From Escherichia coli (GTDB lineage Bacteria > Pseudomonadota > Gammaproteobacteria > Enterobacterales > Enterobacteriaceae): a DNA stretch of 46,125 nt. The notes under the pieces are model-generated. The model was not told the origin of the DNA. It saw only the letters and a program-made list of their open reading frames with translations, and did no database searches. Positions 5,971 to 25,330 of this stretch are shown here, piece after piece (position 1 is the stretch's first letter; each line of letters opens with the position of its first letter). Location: assembly GCF_965641715.1 (NCBI RefSeq), contig NZ_OZ282456.1. One strand, given 5' to 3'. The position numbers were made by a program, and so were the translations under genes.

Positions 5971-6130
5971 TGTGATATCTCCAATATATGGAACTATCAC
6001 CGCCATTCGAGGCTAATCAAATGGTGGTGAGCCGTACAGGGTTAGCCTTACCGGACACAATGACGAACCGGCGCGGATTTCTCCGCCCCTGTACGACCCA
6101 CCATAATTTGGGCGTAACAGTGCTCTACGC

Positions 6131-6157
6131 ATAAAAAAACCGCTAACGCGGTATGCG
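6131..6157 (-). terminator. Candidate intrinsic terminator (minus strand) in the antirepressor leader
   Basis: ACCGC-TAAC-GCGGT hairpin with a 7-A run on the plus strand (T7 on the minus strand). Confidence 0.35.
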
Positions 6158-6298
6158 CCATCGTGTTATTCAGGAGGCTAATCCCGACCGTAGATTTTGC
6201 TACGGCTCGGAAAGTGTCCACCAATGGCGCATTCATGTCAATACGGCGGGATTTTAACAGAGACAACCACATAGCGTGGGTTTATTGGTAGGCAGAAA

Positions 6299-6333
6299 CA
6301 AAAAAACCGCCCTATTGAGGACGGTTCTTTTGT
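6299..6333 (-). terminator. Intrinsic terminator (minus strand, possibly bidirectional) in the antirepressor leader
   Basis: 8-bp stem ACCGCCCT/AGGACGGT with one G-U pair, loop ATTG, flanked by an A-run on one side and TCTTTTGTG on the other. Confidence 0.5.
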
Positions 6334-6715
6334 GCTGATCGGATTCGCGGTCCTTTCAGCATAACGTCGTTGTGTAAACAACCACGCAAGCACAAGCGGC
6401 GTATCTATTCTTACTCAACTGAGGTGAATAGTCCACTATTCATATAAAGAAATTTAGTTCCTTAGTTCATGCAGAATGAAGTTTTTTAACTTCTTCGGAT
6501 GTAATTACATGTAATAAAAGCAATTGTTATTCCTTCATTATGAAGGCGAGGACGTGTAATATGGCTTGGGGCCTTTTCGCCGATTCGCACCCGGGCACCG
6601 ACTTTAAGGAAAGGATCATCCACTTGCCGTACACGCAAGCACAAGCGGAGTGCTTGCTCTCGCGTCATTTTCGTCGGTGGAGATGCCGTGAAACGGCCTG
6701 TAAGGGCCACACAAT

Positions 6716-6836
6716 GAAAAAATACTGTATGTGTATTTTTATCGTTGTTACTGGAGCTTTGTTTACGCCACATGGGGAGGGTTGGAAGATTACTGATAAC
6801 GCTCTGAATGTGACGATAAACATTAGCAGCAAGTAG
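6716..6836 (+). CDS. Candidate small hydrophobic peptide (40 aa)
   Basis: MKKYCMCIFIVVTGALFTPHGEGWKITDNALNVTINISSK; AAGGG upstream of the ATG; terminator immediately downstream. Confidence 0.2.
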
Positions 6837-6841
6837 CGATT

Positions 6842-6864
6842 AGGCCCCTTCGGGGGCCTTTTTT
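6842..6864 (+). terminator. Rho-independent terminator
   Basis: AGGCCCC-TTCG-GGGGCCT hairpin followed by TTTTTT. Confidence 0.55.
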
Positions 6865-6921
6865 ACTGCAACCTGCATTTGATAGCTGTTTACCATTGCA
6901 GTAGCTTATATACCGTAAGAG

Positions 6922-6934
6922 CCACAAGATGTGG
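6922..6934. promoter_or_regulatory. Operator-like inverted repeat CCAC-AAGAT-GTGG
   Basis: Same ACCAC-N5-GTGGT architecture as the three sites between the repressor and cro-like genes. Confidence 0.35.
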
Positions 6935-7012
6935 TTACGATTTCAATACGGGGTTGATATGAAAAAGCGGTATGACGAATTTGATGGTTTCTAAGAGACG
7001 TTGACCTCTAAT

Positions 7013-7037
7013 GAGGCGGGTTGGTTGCCCGCCTTTT
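7013..7037 (+). terminator. Rho-independent terminator
   Basis: GGCGGG-TTGGTTG-CCCGCC hairpin followed by TTTTTT. Confidence 0.5.
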
Positions 7038-7049
7038 TTATGGCTACAT

Positions 7050-7199
7050 TTAAACGCTGGAACGCATTAAACCTTTCAGAACTGCTTCACGTACCCATTC
7101 TGGCCTGGTTGATAGCAAGGCAAATAAACGCCCAGCTTTGAGTCGCTTGAGGTCTATTAGACGAGTTTTTAGTAACCGTGTATATTGTTGTTCGGACAT
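7050..7199 (-). CDS. Small hypothetical protein (49 aa) downstream of parG
   Basis: ATG at 7199 with GGGG 8-9 nt upstream; track frame 7050-7232. Confidence 0.25.
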   Translation of the reverse strand: MSEQQYTRLLKTRLIDLKRLKAGRLFALLSTRPEWVREAVLKGLMRSSV

Positions 7200-7261
7200 A
7201 ACAAATTCCCCTTGTTGTGTCGCGACGGCCAACAGTTGGCGCTGGAGGTCGTCACCTTCTC

Positions 7262-15812: not shown

Positions 15813-15888
15813 GGCCCCTTAGCTCAGTGGTTAGAGCAGGCGACTCATAATCGCACGGTCATCGGTTCAAATCCGGTAGGGGCCACCA
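15813..15888 (+). tRNA. tRNA with CAT anticodon (Met by anticodon; sequence resembles the lysidine-type tRNA-Ile2)
   Basis: Manual cloverleaf: 7-bp acceptor stem GGCCCCT/AGGGGCC, D-arm GCTC-AGTGGTTA-GAGC, anticodon loop CTCATAA, T-loop GGTTCAAATCC, 3' CCA encoded. Confidence 0.8.
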
Positions 15889-23473: not shown

Positions 23474-25330
23474 ATGGGCGAAACAGTATGGAGCACCGCT
23501 TTTTTCCGTGCGCTTCGCCCTAAATCACGGCTAACTGTTTCCGAATGGGCTGATAAGTATCGTCATGTAGCGCCGGGAACGTCTCCAGAGCCAGGGCCGT
23601 GGCGTACAAGCCGAGTGCCATATTTGCGTGAACCAATGGATGTTATTGGTGACGCTGATACAGAAACAGTAGTGATGCAATGTAGCTCGCAAATTGGTAA
23701 ATCCGAATTACAGCTAAATGTTATGGGTTACTTTGCAGATCAGGAGCCATCTCCTCAGTTGATGATTTATCCAACGGTAGAGGCGGCTGAGGCTTTTTCA
23801 AAAGAGCGTATTGATCCGACGTTCAAATATTCCCCTGGTTTGAAACACAAGCTGCATGAAGGGAAAGAGGGGCGCGGTGCAGCCAAAAAGTCCAGCACGA
23901 CTATACGTATGAAGCATTACGCTGGTGGATATATAGCACTTGTTGGTGCTAATTCCCCAGCAGGTCTTGCATCCAGGCCAATTCGAATACTGTTAGCTGA
24001 TGAGATTGATCGTTACGGTGTGACGCAGGAGGGCGACCCACTAAAACTAGGTATTCAGCGTACTACCAACTTTCATAATCGTAAGAAAGTTTTTGTTTCT
24101 ACTCCTGTTTTGGAGGAAACGAGCAAAATCCACAAGTGGTTTAAGCTCTCCGATCAGCGTTACTACCATGTTCCTTGCCCATGTTGTGGCACCATGCAGG
24201 TGATGAAATGGTCGCAAGTCAGATGGGATAAGAGCGATTCAGGTGAGGCGTTACCGGAAACGGCCAGATATGAGTGCTGTGAGTGCGGCGGGATTATGCG
24301 CGGATCTGGTAAACCAGACGTTGATTGGTTGGCGAAGGGGGTATGGATAGCTGAACATACTGGAGTTAAAGGTATTGTTGGTTTTCATATTAACAGTCTT
24401 TACTCCCCGTGGGTTGCATTGTCAGAGCTGGTTGAAGAATTTACGGAAGCAACCAGAAACCGCGATAAAAATGGATTAATGGAGTTTATTAACCTTAAGC
24501 TGGGTGAGCCATGGAAAGAGGATGCTAAAGACGATATCGATCCTGAATACTTGTTGCAACGCAGAATAAGGTTTGAAGAGTTTTTACCAGATGATGTTTT
24601 ATTGTTAAGTGCTGGTGTTGACGTACAGGACACGTATTTAGTTTGTGAATTGGTCGGTTGGGGAAAAGGTAAGGAGTCATGGGGGATAGAATATAAAATA
24701 TTCCCAGGTGATCCCGCACAAGATGTTGTCTGGAAACAACTTGATGAATACTTACTCCGTAGCTGGTCATTCCGTGACGGTCGAAAATTACAGATTTCTT
24801 CCGTTTGTATTGACTCTGGTGGGCATTTTACGACAGAGGTATATCGCTTTACTAAGCCGAGAGAATCAAGGCGAATATACTCTATCAGGGGGCGTGGTGG
24901 GGTAGGTTTACCATTTATAGGAAAGCCAAGTAATAATAACCGTGTGGGTGCTATGTTGTTTAATTTGGGGGTTGATGATGGTAAAGGGACCATCATGGCA
25001 AGAATTAAACTACATGATCCTGGTCCTGGTTATATGCATTTCCCATTAGATTCTGACAGAGGATATGATACCGAATACTTTAAAGGATTATTATCAGAGA
25101 AGAAAATATTTGAATATAAAAATGGGCAGACAAAAGAAAAGTGGGTGAAAGTCTACGAGCGTAACGAGCCTCTTGATTGCCGTAACTATGCAACTGCCGC
25201 GATGGAAATTCTGAACCCTAATTTTAACTGGCTTGCCGAACAGGAAATGCGAGGTAATGTGTATGTGCAGAACTCGTCAGGTATACGTAGAAGACGCCGT
25301 AGAGTTATAAGTAAAGGCGTAACCATATAG
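23474..25330 (+). CDS. Terminase large subunit (lambda gpA-like)
   Basis: 618 aa; Walker A-like QCSSQIGKSE; overall layout of GpA-family terminases. Confidence 0.85.
   Translation: MGETVWSTAFFRALRPKSRLTVSEWADKYRHVAPGTSPEPGPWRTSRVPYLREPMDVIGDADTETVVMQCSSQIGKSELQLNVMGYFADQEPSPQLMIYPTVEAAEAFSKERIDPTFKYSPGLKHKLHEGKEGRGAAKKSSTTIRMKHYAGGYIALVGANSPAGLASRPIRILLADEIDRYGVTQEGDPLKLGIQRTTNFHNRKKVFVSTPVLEETSKIHKWFKLSDQRYYHVPCPCCGTMQVMKWSQVRWDKSDSGEALPETARYECCECGGIMRGSGKPDVDWLAKGVWIAEHTGVKGIVGFHINSLYSPWVALSELVEEFTEATRNRDKNGLMEFINLKLGEPWKEDAKDDIDPEYLLQRRIRFEEFLPDDVLLLSAGVDVQDTYLVCELVGWGKGKESWGIEYKIFPGDPAQDVVWKQLDEYLLRSWSFRDGRKLQISSVCIDSGGHFTTEVYRFTKPRESRRIYSIRGRGGVGLPFIGKPSNNNRVGAMLFNLGVDDGKGTIMARIKLHDPGPGYMHFPLDSDRGYDTEYFKGLLSEKKIFEYKNGQTKEKWVKVYERNEPLDCRNYATAAMEILNPNFNWLAEQEMRGNVYVQNSSGIRRRRRRVISKGVTI

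Follow-up and report, generated by a model that had tools for sequence, protein, structure and literature searches.

What do two short, terminated units lying in a row on an Escherichia coli plasmid encode? The DNA analysed here, referred to below as the window, is a stretch of 46,125 bp that represents the entire plasmid pRHB38-C13_5 (CP055628.1) in reverse orientation, from an E. coli isolate obtained from pig faeces; window position x corresponds to position 25329 − x of the record. A preliminary description of positions 6716–7037 had noted a 40-aa open reading frame (ORF) with a hydrophobic N terminus, followed by a second, tiny ORF, each with its own terminator, and had compared the two with small toxin or small RNA loci. 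It is very probable, from the results presented here, that the first of these units (unit 1) is a complete type I toxin–antitoxin locus of the timP/TimR type, that the second (unit 2) is a stranded leader of a DUF4760 gene, and that the two modules are unrelated. The comparison with a toxin locus was thus apt for unit 1. It does not hold for unit 2, either as a toxin or as a known small RNA (sRNA), and the two units do not constitute a pair, as unit 1 occurs without unit 2 in most related plasmids.

The positions originally described omit two parts of the locus, a minus-strand antitoxin RNA (~6300–6400) and a structured 5′ untranslated region (5′UTR) of 147 nt that begins at 6567. The terminators of the two units are the two best-scoring of eight terminator-like sites in 3 kb, a region for which shuffled sequences gave 3.3 ± 1.7 such sites.

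A timP-like toxin mRNA in unit 1

Unit 1 corresponds to a toxin mRNA on the plus strand (6567–6864), composed of the 147-nt structured 5′UTR, an ORF and a terminator. The region matches the Rfam family RF00126 (ryfA) over the whole of the model (1–296 of 296); the match scores 135.5 bits, the gathering score being 80, with an E value of 1e-34. The ryfA gene was first named as a non-coding RNA; Andresen et al. showed its product to be TimP, a toxic protein of 38 aa in the inner membrane, and its repressor to be the adjacent small RNA TimR (PMC7667032). Among 5,426 complete E. coli genomes searched, the DNA of the toxin mRNA proved to be approximately 70% identical to chromosomal timP over window positions 6569–6766, and the RefSeq label of the chromosomal loci matched is 'small toxic inner membrane protein TimP'.

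The 40-aa ORF occupies positions 6714–6836 on the plus strand (stop codon, 6834–6836), starts at +148 of the Rfam match and encodes MKKYCMCIFIVVTGALFTPHGEGWKITDNALNVTINISSK; its assignment as a TimP-like toxin is based on homology and on its preservation in relatives. It had been placed at 6716–6836; the start codon is the ATG at 6714, of which 6716 is the G. The hydrophobic character of the N terminus is evident from the Kyte–Doolittle mean for residues 4–18, which is 2.16 for the window peptide and 2.13 for E. coli TimP. A BLASTP comparison of these two peptides gave 53% identity over residues 1–19, and their N-terminal halves, MKKYCMCIFIVVTGALFT in the window and MKIRCFCIVLIVSGALLT in TimP, are similar in sequence and have the same hydropathy. 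The C-terminal half of the window peptide, PHGEGWKITDNALNVTINISSK, is unlike the Asn/Leu-rich tail of chromosomal TimP. The NCBIfam model NF040796 (toxic_TimP) could be aligned with residues 1–40 of the 40, with an E value of 7e-5 and a score of 23 bits, below the curated cutoff of 45. Judged by its sequence, the peptide is a divergent branch of TimP that lies outside the curated chromosomal subfamily. As its score is below the NCBIfam cutoff, the peptide is unannotated in every plasmid record examined. A query of a collection of 5.8 billion proteins with the TimP-like peptide returned two clusters only, ORFs of this size being rarely called.

It is apparent that the ORF has been maintained. 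It is intact in all 14 homologues (13 plasmids and a relative with a 68%-identical peptide), one of which is only 80% identical at the DNA level, and the ratio of nonsynonymous to synonymous differences (pN/pS) between the window ORF and that of the distant relative is 0.53. The ORF is followed, as had been described, by an intrinsic terminator at 6842–6864 on the plus strand, with a stem of seven pairs, six of them G-C, at 6842–6859 and a T6 run at 6859–6864; this terminator is the 3′ hairpin of the Rfam model.

A predicted divergent antitoxin RNA complementary to the toxin 5′UTR

The sequence CACGCAAGCACAAGCGG is found on the plus strand at 6383–6399 and again at 6632–6648 and nowhere else in the window, the number of matches expected being 0.01. 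Because of this 17-nt direct repeat, a minus-strand RNA that spans 6383–6399 is perfectly complementary to the toxin 5′UTR over 17 nt. Homology, fold and the presence of a terminator point to such an RNA, a TimR-like antitoxin sRNA of approximately 100 nt, on the minus strand from ~6400 to 6300. Its putative seed (6383–6399, minus strand) reads CCGCUUGUGCUUGCGUG and would constitute nt 2–18 of the predicted RNA. The corresponding binding site in the toxin 5′UTR (6632–6648, plus strand) is situated in stem-loop 2 (SL2) and ends 65 nt before the AUG. A −10-like hexamer, AAGAAT, can be read at 6412–6407 on the minus strand and would set the start of the antitoxin near 6400, with the seed at the extreme 5′ end. 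A strong intrinsic terminator closes the predicted RNA, with its stem at 6326–6305 and a run of seven T at 6306–6300, also on the minus strand.

The body of the antitoxin aligns with E. coli chromosomal TimR, and the two have in common the stem-loop GCUG..GACCGCGAAUCC..CAGC. The fold calculated for the 101-nt antitoxin has a free energy of −39.7 kcal/mol (z = −4.05), and 0 of 200 shuffled sequences folded as well. Rfam searches of 6296–6412, at E values up to 10, gave only sub-threshold matches of the kind expected by chance (RNAI, with 27 bits against 47, and leader families).

Conservation of this arrangement was assessed in related elements. The block 6290–6865 recurs as a unit in approximately 60 related phage-plasmids, at 80–99% identity and always beside the ParA operon. 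The duplex is present in all 12 further plasmids compared, with a length of 17–21 nt and ending 61–65 nt before the AUG. Three versions of the site occur in the plasmids, with the differences matched on both sides (GCGG/CCGC, ACAG/CUGU and GCAG/CUGC). A fourth version, AUGCAAGCACUAACCUG, is found on both sides in the distant relative mentioned above, which is likewise located beside a ParA operon and in which 65 nt separate the site from the AUG. Two further versions occur in the two chromosomal copies of E. coli, the distance to the AUG being 63 nt in the one that was measured. The duplex is retained throughout the 13 phage-plasmids, the distant relative and both chromosomal copies, with no fewer than five different site sequences. 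These findings are in line with published data on enterobacterial timP loci, which have, upstream and on the opposite strand, a sequence complementary to the toxin 5′UTR, followed by a terminator, at a constant distance from the AUG (PMC7667032).

A count of the helix across ten loci revealed that 92% of the cells were paired and that both partners vary in 14 of the 21 pairs, values that are biased toward pairing by the choice of the antitoxin-side site for its maximal similarity to the 5′UTR site. In control counts, slid sites yielded 23–50% pairing, and 0 of 500 shuffles reached the observed values. The predicted energy of the cognate duplex is −38.3 kcal/mol, compared with −28.9 for host TimR on the plasmid toxin mRNA and −22.0 for the reciprocal combination. 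Cross-talk between the plasmid timPR and the chromosomal copy of the host is thus predicted to be weak.

The 164-bp region that separates the two RNAs (6403–6566) would contain both divergent promoters. A −10-like TAATAT for timP can be read at 6557–6562. Among the 13 plasmids, this region occurs as three to four alleles that cannot be aligned with one another, and the flanking RNAs are 90–100% identical; this hypervariability suggests promoter swapping or diversifying selection.

A predicted translation switch in the toxin 5′UTR

In Salmonella, translation of timP needs a 7-bp pseudoknot between SL1 and SL3, together with a pairing between site 2 and the flank of SL4 that frees the Shine–Dalgarno (SD) sequence (PMC11228461, PMC13000454). 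Binding of TimR to SL2 destabilises the pseudoknot (PMC11228461, PMC13000454). The role considered here for SL4 and for the site 2–4 pairing is that given in PMC13000454.

Each of these elements has a counterpart or candidate counterpart in the window, on the plus strand. Pseudoknot site 1, CACCGAC (6596–6602), lies in SL1 and is the perfect complement of site 3, GUCGGUG (6673–6679), in SL3. The same alignment columns hold CGCUGGC:GCCAGUG in E. coli, so that two of the seven pairs are fully compensatory. SL4, read from the sequence together with the Rfam structure line, is a hairpin of the form GGCC-UGUAAG-GGCC (6695–6708) and contains the SD sequence AAGGG, 8 nt before the AUG. Site 2, GCCGU (6625–6629), can pair with ACGGC (6693–6697), the 5′ flank of SL4; this candidate pairing has 5 bp, one fewer than the 6 bp of Salmonella and E. 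coli (GACCGU:GCGGUC in E. coli), and includes one compensatory change.

Homology extends to both RNAs and to the peptide, and the duplex and its co-variation are conserved together with the predicted architecture of the switch. The following mechanism can be proposed by analogy with Salmonella timP. The plus strand would give rise to an mRNA of approximately 300 nt, whose structured 5′UTR would control the translation of a 40-aa hydrophobic inner-membrane toxin. Translation would require the pseudoknot 6596–6602/6673–6679 and the second long-range pairing, which would open the hairpin that hides the SD sequence. The divergent minus-strand RNA of approximately 100 nt would pair through its 5′ end with 17 nt of SL2, and this duplex would destabilise the pseudoknot and block toxin synthesis. 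The peptide itself, by the same analogy, would be toxic to the inner membrane.

It could be argued instead that unit 1 is mainly a non-coding regulatory RNA, acting as a 'RyfA sRNA' on stress and virulence genes of the host, with the ORF being incidental. RyfA has indeed been reported as an sRNA for stress resistance, biofilm formation and virulence, in uropathogenic and avian pathogenic E. coli and in Shigella (PMC8205139, PMC10664665, PMC13188913, PMC5333039). However, in Salmonella the toxicity of timP depends on the start codon, and the protein has been detected (PMC7667032). In the present data the ORF is intact in every homologue, with the pN/pS value given above, and the locus has features of translational control, namely an antisense partner of its own, the pseudoknot and the putative hairpin that hides the SD. 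A mainly non-coding function is therefore considered quite improbable, although a role as a regulatory RNA and one as a toxin mRNA would be compatible with each other.

Unit 1 has every sequence-level feature of timPR that could be assessed clearly, the NCBI protein cutoff being the exception, and on these features it is a divergent, mobile-element member of the known timPR family. No report of a timPR locus borne by a plasmid or a phage-plasmid was found in the searchable literature.

Unit 2 is an insertion with a short terminated cassette

Unit 2 is contained in an insertion of 175 bp (6866–7040, plus strand) that is absent from most of the related plasmids, in which GCCTTTTTTATGG stands directly after the timP terminator. 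The uninterrupted backbone after that terminator reads GCCTTTTTTATGGTTGAATTTAAACGCTGG, and the backbone of the window resumes after the second terminator as GCCTTTTTTATGGCTACATTTAAACGCTGG. The ends of the insertion are ambiguous within a 10-nt repeat, GCCTTTTTTA, at 6856–6865 and 7031–7040. The insertion was detected in a handful of related plasmids and, in the E. coli genome collection, in six plasmids at identities of at least 99%. Approximately 170 bp of unit 2 were also found, at 80% identity, in approximately 290 E. coli chromosomes, within P2-like prophages, and in Peduoviridae phages. Where the context was read, these copies are located at the cargo site beside the portal gene, a position known to hold defence genes in P2-like phages. 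The sequence GCCTTTTTTA(TGG), at 6856–6865 and 7031–7043 of the window, is common to the plasmid backbone after timP and to the terminator of the DUF4760 leader in P2-like phages, and cargo swaps in the phages seem to break at that leader terminator also.

A candidate promoter, TTGATA–17 nt–TAGCTT (6879–6907, plus strand), was negative in a consensus scan and is kept in the P2-like copies, where the hexamers are TTGACC or TTGACA and TAGTTT or TAATTT, separated by 17–18 nt. The predicted transcript (~6914–7039) folds into a 5′ hairpin, a helix between the SD and an anti-SD segment, and a terminator (z = −2.45). The 5′ hairpin would be formed by the inverted repeat CCACAAGATGTGG (CCACA-AGA-TGTGG, 6922–6934, plus strand), which begins at approximately +9 of the transcript and is present in the minimum-free-energy fold. 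The preliminary description had regarded this repeat as an operator-like site; the repeat is real, and it could function either as an operator or as an RNA hairpin. Its arms are kept and its loop varies, other lineages having CCAC-N5-GTGG, TTCAC-N6-GTGAA or CACC-N4-GGTG.

The candidate product of unit 2 is an 11-codon micro-ORF, MKKRYDEFDGF (6959–6994, plus strand), with an SD sequence, GGGG, at 6950–6953, 5 nt upstream. An anti-SD segment, UUGACCUC (7001–7008, plus strand), pairs with the SD region, GGGGUUGA, in both the minimum-free-energy and the centroid folds. In the window, the SD has an unpaired probability of 0.72 in the nascent RNA and of 0.07 once the leader is complete, compared with 0.43 when the tails are shuffled. 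The second terminator, which had been correctly located from 7013, has a nine-pair stem at 7013–7035 followed by T6; it extends to 7039 on the plus strand and begins 18 nt after the micro-ORF stop codon. The sequence beyond it belongs to the 3′ end of the partition operon, which runs convergently.

The micro-ORF is nested, in frame, within the 21-aa ORF that had been proposed as the coding sequence of this unit, as part of a second small toxin or sRNA locus under an operator at 6922–6934. Both the 21-aa ORF (6929–6994) and the inverted repeat do exist, but the ATG at 6929 is located inside the hairpin, has no SD sequence and is ACG in the P2-like copies, the conserved start being that at 6959. 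The 21-aa product is, moreover, hydrophilic, with a grand average of hydropathy (GRAVY) of −0.88. The 21-aa ORF was therefore rejected as the product of unit 2, and a second toxin or sRNA locus of this kind is considered extremely improbable. The 11-aa product has a GRAVY value of −1.55; as this peptide is hydrophilic and acidic, and not a hydrophobic membrane-spanning peptide, unit 2 is not a type I toxin. No Rfam family was found in 6866–7045 at E values up to 10.

A micro-ORF family upstream of DUF4760 genes

Variants of the micro-ORF in other elements include MKKMYDEFDGF in E. coli prophages and MKKVFDEFDGF in a Citrobacter phage, with several of the differences being synonymous. A scan of IMG/VR with a degenerate pattern identified 34 loci containing the micro-ORF, with synonymous variants, strong SD sequences and a terminator after the ORF. 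When these loci were combined with five others, a gene for a DUF4760 (PF15956) membrane protein was situated 40–70 nt after the micro-ORF stop, behind the terminator, in approximately 30 of the 39 loci, a sample for which the pattern scan had presupposed the peptide. A test independent of the peptide was provided by 49 DUF4760 loci (L053–L101, IMG/VR) identified by the protein alone, down to 32% identity, which represent 38 distinct upstream regions. A micro-ORF of 8–15 codons ending in [DE][EN][FYW][DE]G[FY]-stop was present in 37 of these 38 regions, examples being MRINEEFDGF, MIVKSIRDEYEGF, MNVLPVQANEEYEGF and MKPMHQEGWDGY; the single exception is a region lost to an insertion. Where the context was read, it was mostly that of P2-like phages.

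The cassette can accordingly be defined as an ORF with this terminal motif, an SD sequence 5–8 nt upstream, a terminator 16–29 nt after the stop codon, and then a DUF4760 gene. Most of the related leaders checked have an intrinsic terminator at that distance, with none in L100. The window copy has the motif, the SD and the terminator of this definition but not the DUF4760 gene, no homologue of which was detected in the window (best tblastn E value, 2.5). The copy in unit 2 is therefore an orphan. No paper describing the micro-ORF upstream of DUF4760 genes was found, and the sole mention of DUF4760 found in the literature is one made in passing. The micro-ORF cassette family is thus apparently undescribed, and unit 2 apparently belongs to no described family.

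In its native context, the cassette may be a nascent-peptide attenuator or, alternatively, a pair made up of the peptide and an effector, their genes being separated by a partial terminator. As there is no DUF4760 gene in cis, the cassette in the window can do neither job in cis. The most likely explanation, and the one adopted here by default, is that unit 2 is a stranded, orphan leader that was carried in by recombination at GCCTTTTTTATGG, the 175-bp insertion having presumably been acquired at the common GCCTTTTTTA(TGG). Such a leader would produce at most a short terminated transcript and the peptide MKKRYDEFDGF.

An alternative is that unit 2 works in trans, the 11-aa peptide or the RNA of ~125 nt serving, for example, as an antidote to, or regulator of, DUF4760 proteins from resident P2-like prophages, or the RNA acting as an sRNA. 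All the parts of unit 2 are intact and identical in six plasmids, and another orphan copy (L036) also appears intact. The C-terminal motif is, in addition, conserved although the DUF4760 proteins share only 32–40% identity, and its retention across such divergent loci indicates that the amino acid sequence of the peptide itself matters. On the other hand, a further orphan lineage (L017/L029) is decaying, with an ATA start codon and a broken terminator, and the L001 copy has single-base deletions in the −10 hexamer and in the anti-SD segment. Complementary matches of unit 2 elsewhere in the window are about as frequent as chance would give (five matches of 11–12 nt, with approximately two expected by our own estimate), and a role for the RNA as an antisense regulator within the window was rejected; the Rfam search reported above likewise lends no support to an sRNA. 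None of the six plasmid-bearing E. coli genomes has a chromosomal copy (298 records, 298 genomes), a result that is uninformative. Function in trans is accordingly judged improbable. A more specific form of this proposal, that the undescribed micro-ORF family partners DUF4760 membrane proteins, either as a nascent-peptide sensor that governs read-through of the terminator or as a labile antidote, and that the orphan has been kept for action in trans, for instance against the DUF4760 module of a competing resident prophage, is held to be decidedly improbable as well.

Several further observations were made on the family. Hiding of the SD, which is clear in the window and its close relatives, was rejected as a family-wide property: in 26 leaders the mean unpaired probability was 0.34, compared with 0.36 for shuffled tails, and was lower than the latter in only 15 of the 26. 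The consensus structure given by RNAalifold was limited to the terminator and a small hairpin at the stop codon, and no consistent antiterminator could be derived. The micro-ORF stop codon lies in the loop of that hairpin (columns 49–62 of alignment A6; window ~6983–6998), and two of the stem pairs co-vary with the third, synonymous bases of the Asp and Gly codons (CG in 7–8 sequences, UA in four). The possibility that the micro-peptide mimics the invariant DUF4760 motif YQEFEWL was dismissed, as no matching change occurs where the motif is YKDFEKL, YRHFEKM or YQCLERA. A resemblance of this acidic peptide with its C-terminal Phe to the C-terminal tip of the single-stranded DNA-binding protein SSB was set aside, as the two align poorly.

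DUF4760 could not be identified as a known defence protein; it gave no PADLOC match, and its PHROG families are of unknown function. A 280-aa neighbour of DUF4760 has a weak match to Csx27 (E = 1e-5). The AlphaFold model of a DUF4760 protein from outside the window (L002, 4181–4675) has a predicted local distance difference test (pLDDT) value of 92 and consists of an N-terminal membrane helix and a helical bundle. Its best matches in the PDB, which are weak, are the EP domains of EDS1, PAD4 and SAG101, which are immune proteins of plants (probability, 0.97–0.98; template modelling (TM) score, 0.53–0.58; E = 0.3).

Setting on a phage-plasmid and the role of unit 1

The window plasmid encodes RepA, ParA and a RelE/ParE pair. 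It also has complete sets of genes for the capsid, a contractile tail, holin and lysis. As it combines these replication and stability functions with complete phage structural and lysis genes, the replicon is a phage-plasmid. In PLSDB, approximately 60 related plasmids of 46–52 kb were identified in Escherichia, Salmonella and Klebsiella, and three Yersinia phages are also related to it. The CP055628.1 record contains no annotated feature across the stretch that matches window 5971–7261.

The timPR module is flanked on one side by an immunity cassette resembling immI of P1/P7 (4640–6206, minus strand) and on the other by the ParA partition operon. The immunity cassette, all of whose parts are on the minus strand, is made up of an isrK RNA (6206–6133; 65.7 bits) and a C4 antisense RNA (6108–6020; 70.8 bits), both unannotated in the record, a 75-aa ORF (6006–5779) and an ORF6N/KilAC antirepressor (5782–4640). 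In five relatives (L005, L006, L008, L012 and L013), the immunity cassette is separated from the antitoxin by a helix-turn-helix (HTH) gene of approximately 570 nt on the plus strand, which overlaps the antitoxin terminator with its 3′ end; the window lacks this gene. At the end of the partition operon is a 60-aa ORF (7050–7232, minus strand), unannotated in the window, for which relatives have a 49-aa hypothetical protein at the matching position (e.g. WP_000003577), the window version being longer; its PHROG match is weak (phrog_22022, E = 0.0017). A RelE/ParE toxin with an XRE antitoxin (2312–2958) represents a second addiction-type module of the same replicon. Positions 15813–15885 hold a tRNA gene whose anticodon loop has CAU (67 bits).

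The location of timPR suggests that its most likely function on this replicon is that of a maintenance, or post-segregational killing, device, because the partition operon is adjacent and because the interaction-site sequence differs from that of the host timPR. The lower predicted affinity of host TimR for the plasmid toxin mRNA would provide the insulation needed for such a role in a host that has a timPR of its own.

A serious alternative, though on balance an unlikely one, is that timPR serves the biology of the phage, by abortive infection or exclusion of other phages or through membrane damage timed to induction and lysis. The position of the module between the immunity cassette, with its isrK, C4 and antirepressor, and the partition operon would suit such a role, and a hypervariable promoter region might be expected under conflict. 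Type I toxins have, moreover, been linked to phage exclusion in the case of hok/sok and T4 (work cited in PMC13000454) and to prophage release in the case of hokW-sokW (PMC8621323). Against this stands the constant position of the module next to the partition genes. The molecular mechanism would be the same as that described above, the physiological role alone being different.

A number of points weigh against the overall interpretation offered here. All of the evidence is comparative, toxicity, transcription and translation being deduced from homology, and the maintenance role is deduced from location. As mentioned above, the peptide, with 23 bits, does not reach the NCBI TimP cutoff of 45 and differs from chromosomal TimP in its C-terminal half, and the choice of antitoxin-side sites favours pairing in the helix count. 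The RNA starts and promoters were taken from weak hexamers, none of which was called by the consensus scan. Chromosomal timPR is itself without a known physiological role: deletion of timR is harmless to the growth of Salmonella, and no natural inducing condition has been found (PMC7667032). The plasmid, furthermore, already has its RelE/ParE module. With regard to unit 2, the copy is fully intact in its promoter, SD, ORF and terminator, and is 100% identical in six plasmids, which would be compatible with a function in trans.

Significance

The interval is now largely explained, and its interest lies in a testable setting for timPR and in the micro-ORF family. A divergent timPR with a site specificity of its own, fixed beside the partition genes of approximately 60 phage-plasmids, offers a setting in which maintenance and phage conflict can be tested, and the standard strain E. 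coli ATCC 25922, whose plasmid has the L006-type allele, is among the carriers of this phage-plasmid family. The variants of the interaction site and of the pseudoknot constitute natural material for testing the published model of the RNA switch. The locus also exposes a gap in annotation, being missing from every plasmid record examined, with a peptide that is under the NCBI cutoff. The stranded unit 2, in turn, brought to light a micro-ORF that precedes almost all of the DUF4760 genes compared and that represents a new regulatory puzzle.

Comparison with known systems

The native form of unit 2 resembles trpL, tnaC and the leaders of antibiotic-resistance genes in having a very short ORF with a good SD sequence, then an intrinsic terminator at a short, fixed distance from the stop codon, and then the gene that would be regulated. 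As in tnaC, the best-conserved residues of the micro-ORF are the last ones ahead of the stop codon. Unlike the leader-peptide attenuators, the micro-ORF family has no run of a single amino acid and no convincing family-conserved antiterminator, and the copy in the window has no downstream gene to regulate.

The closest relative of unit 1 is the chromosomal timP/TimR system of Salmonella, E. coli and Shigella (ryfA/RyfB1, STnc2070), with which it shares the RNA family match. The ORF starts at +148 here and at +145 in Salmonella timP, and in both systems a peptide of approximately 40 aa has a hydrophobic N-terminal half. Both have a divergent, non-overlapping antitoxin with 17–21 nt of complementarity to SL2, approximately 63–65 nt before the AUG; the antitoxin body and terminator are homologous, and the complementary stretch would be at the 5′ end of the RNA, as in Salmonella TimR. 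The SL1–SL3 pseudoknot is likewise common to the two, as are, by prediction, the site 2–4 pairing and the SD-hiding SL4. The window locus differs from chromosomal timPR in being carried by a phage-plasmid rather than between sseA and sseB, in its DNA identity of only ~70% over 200 aligned bases, in a peptide that is under the NCBIfam cutoff and has a different C-terminal half, in the sequence of its interaction site, and in its hypervariable promoter region.

Among the other type I systems, hok/sok of plasmid R1 is similar in that a small membrane toxin under antisense RNA control is borne on a plasmid beside stability functions, and it is the natural model for a maintenance role. The two are, however, unrelated in sequence and structure: hok needs 3′ processing and has the mok leader, and sok overlaps its target, whereas the antitoxin of the window is divergent and its target is a pseudoknot-dependent 5′UTR. 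The layout of tisB/istR-1, zorO/orzO and shoB/ohsC is that of the window locus, with an antitoxin whose transcription proceeds away from the toxin gene and which has a short repeat in common with the toxin 5′UTR. The sequences of these systems are unrelated to that of the window locus, and their mRNAs are activated by processing, whereas that of timP is controlled by a structural switch (PMC11228461).

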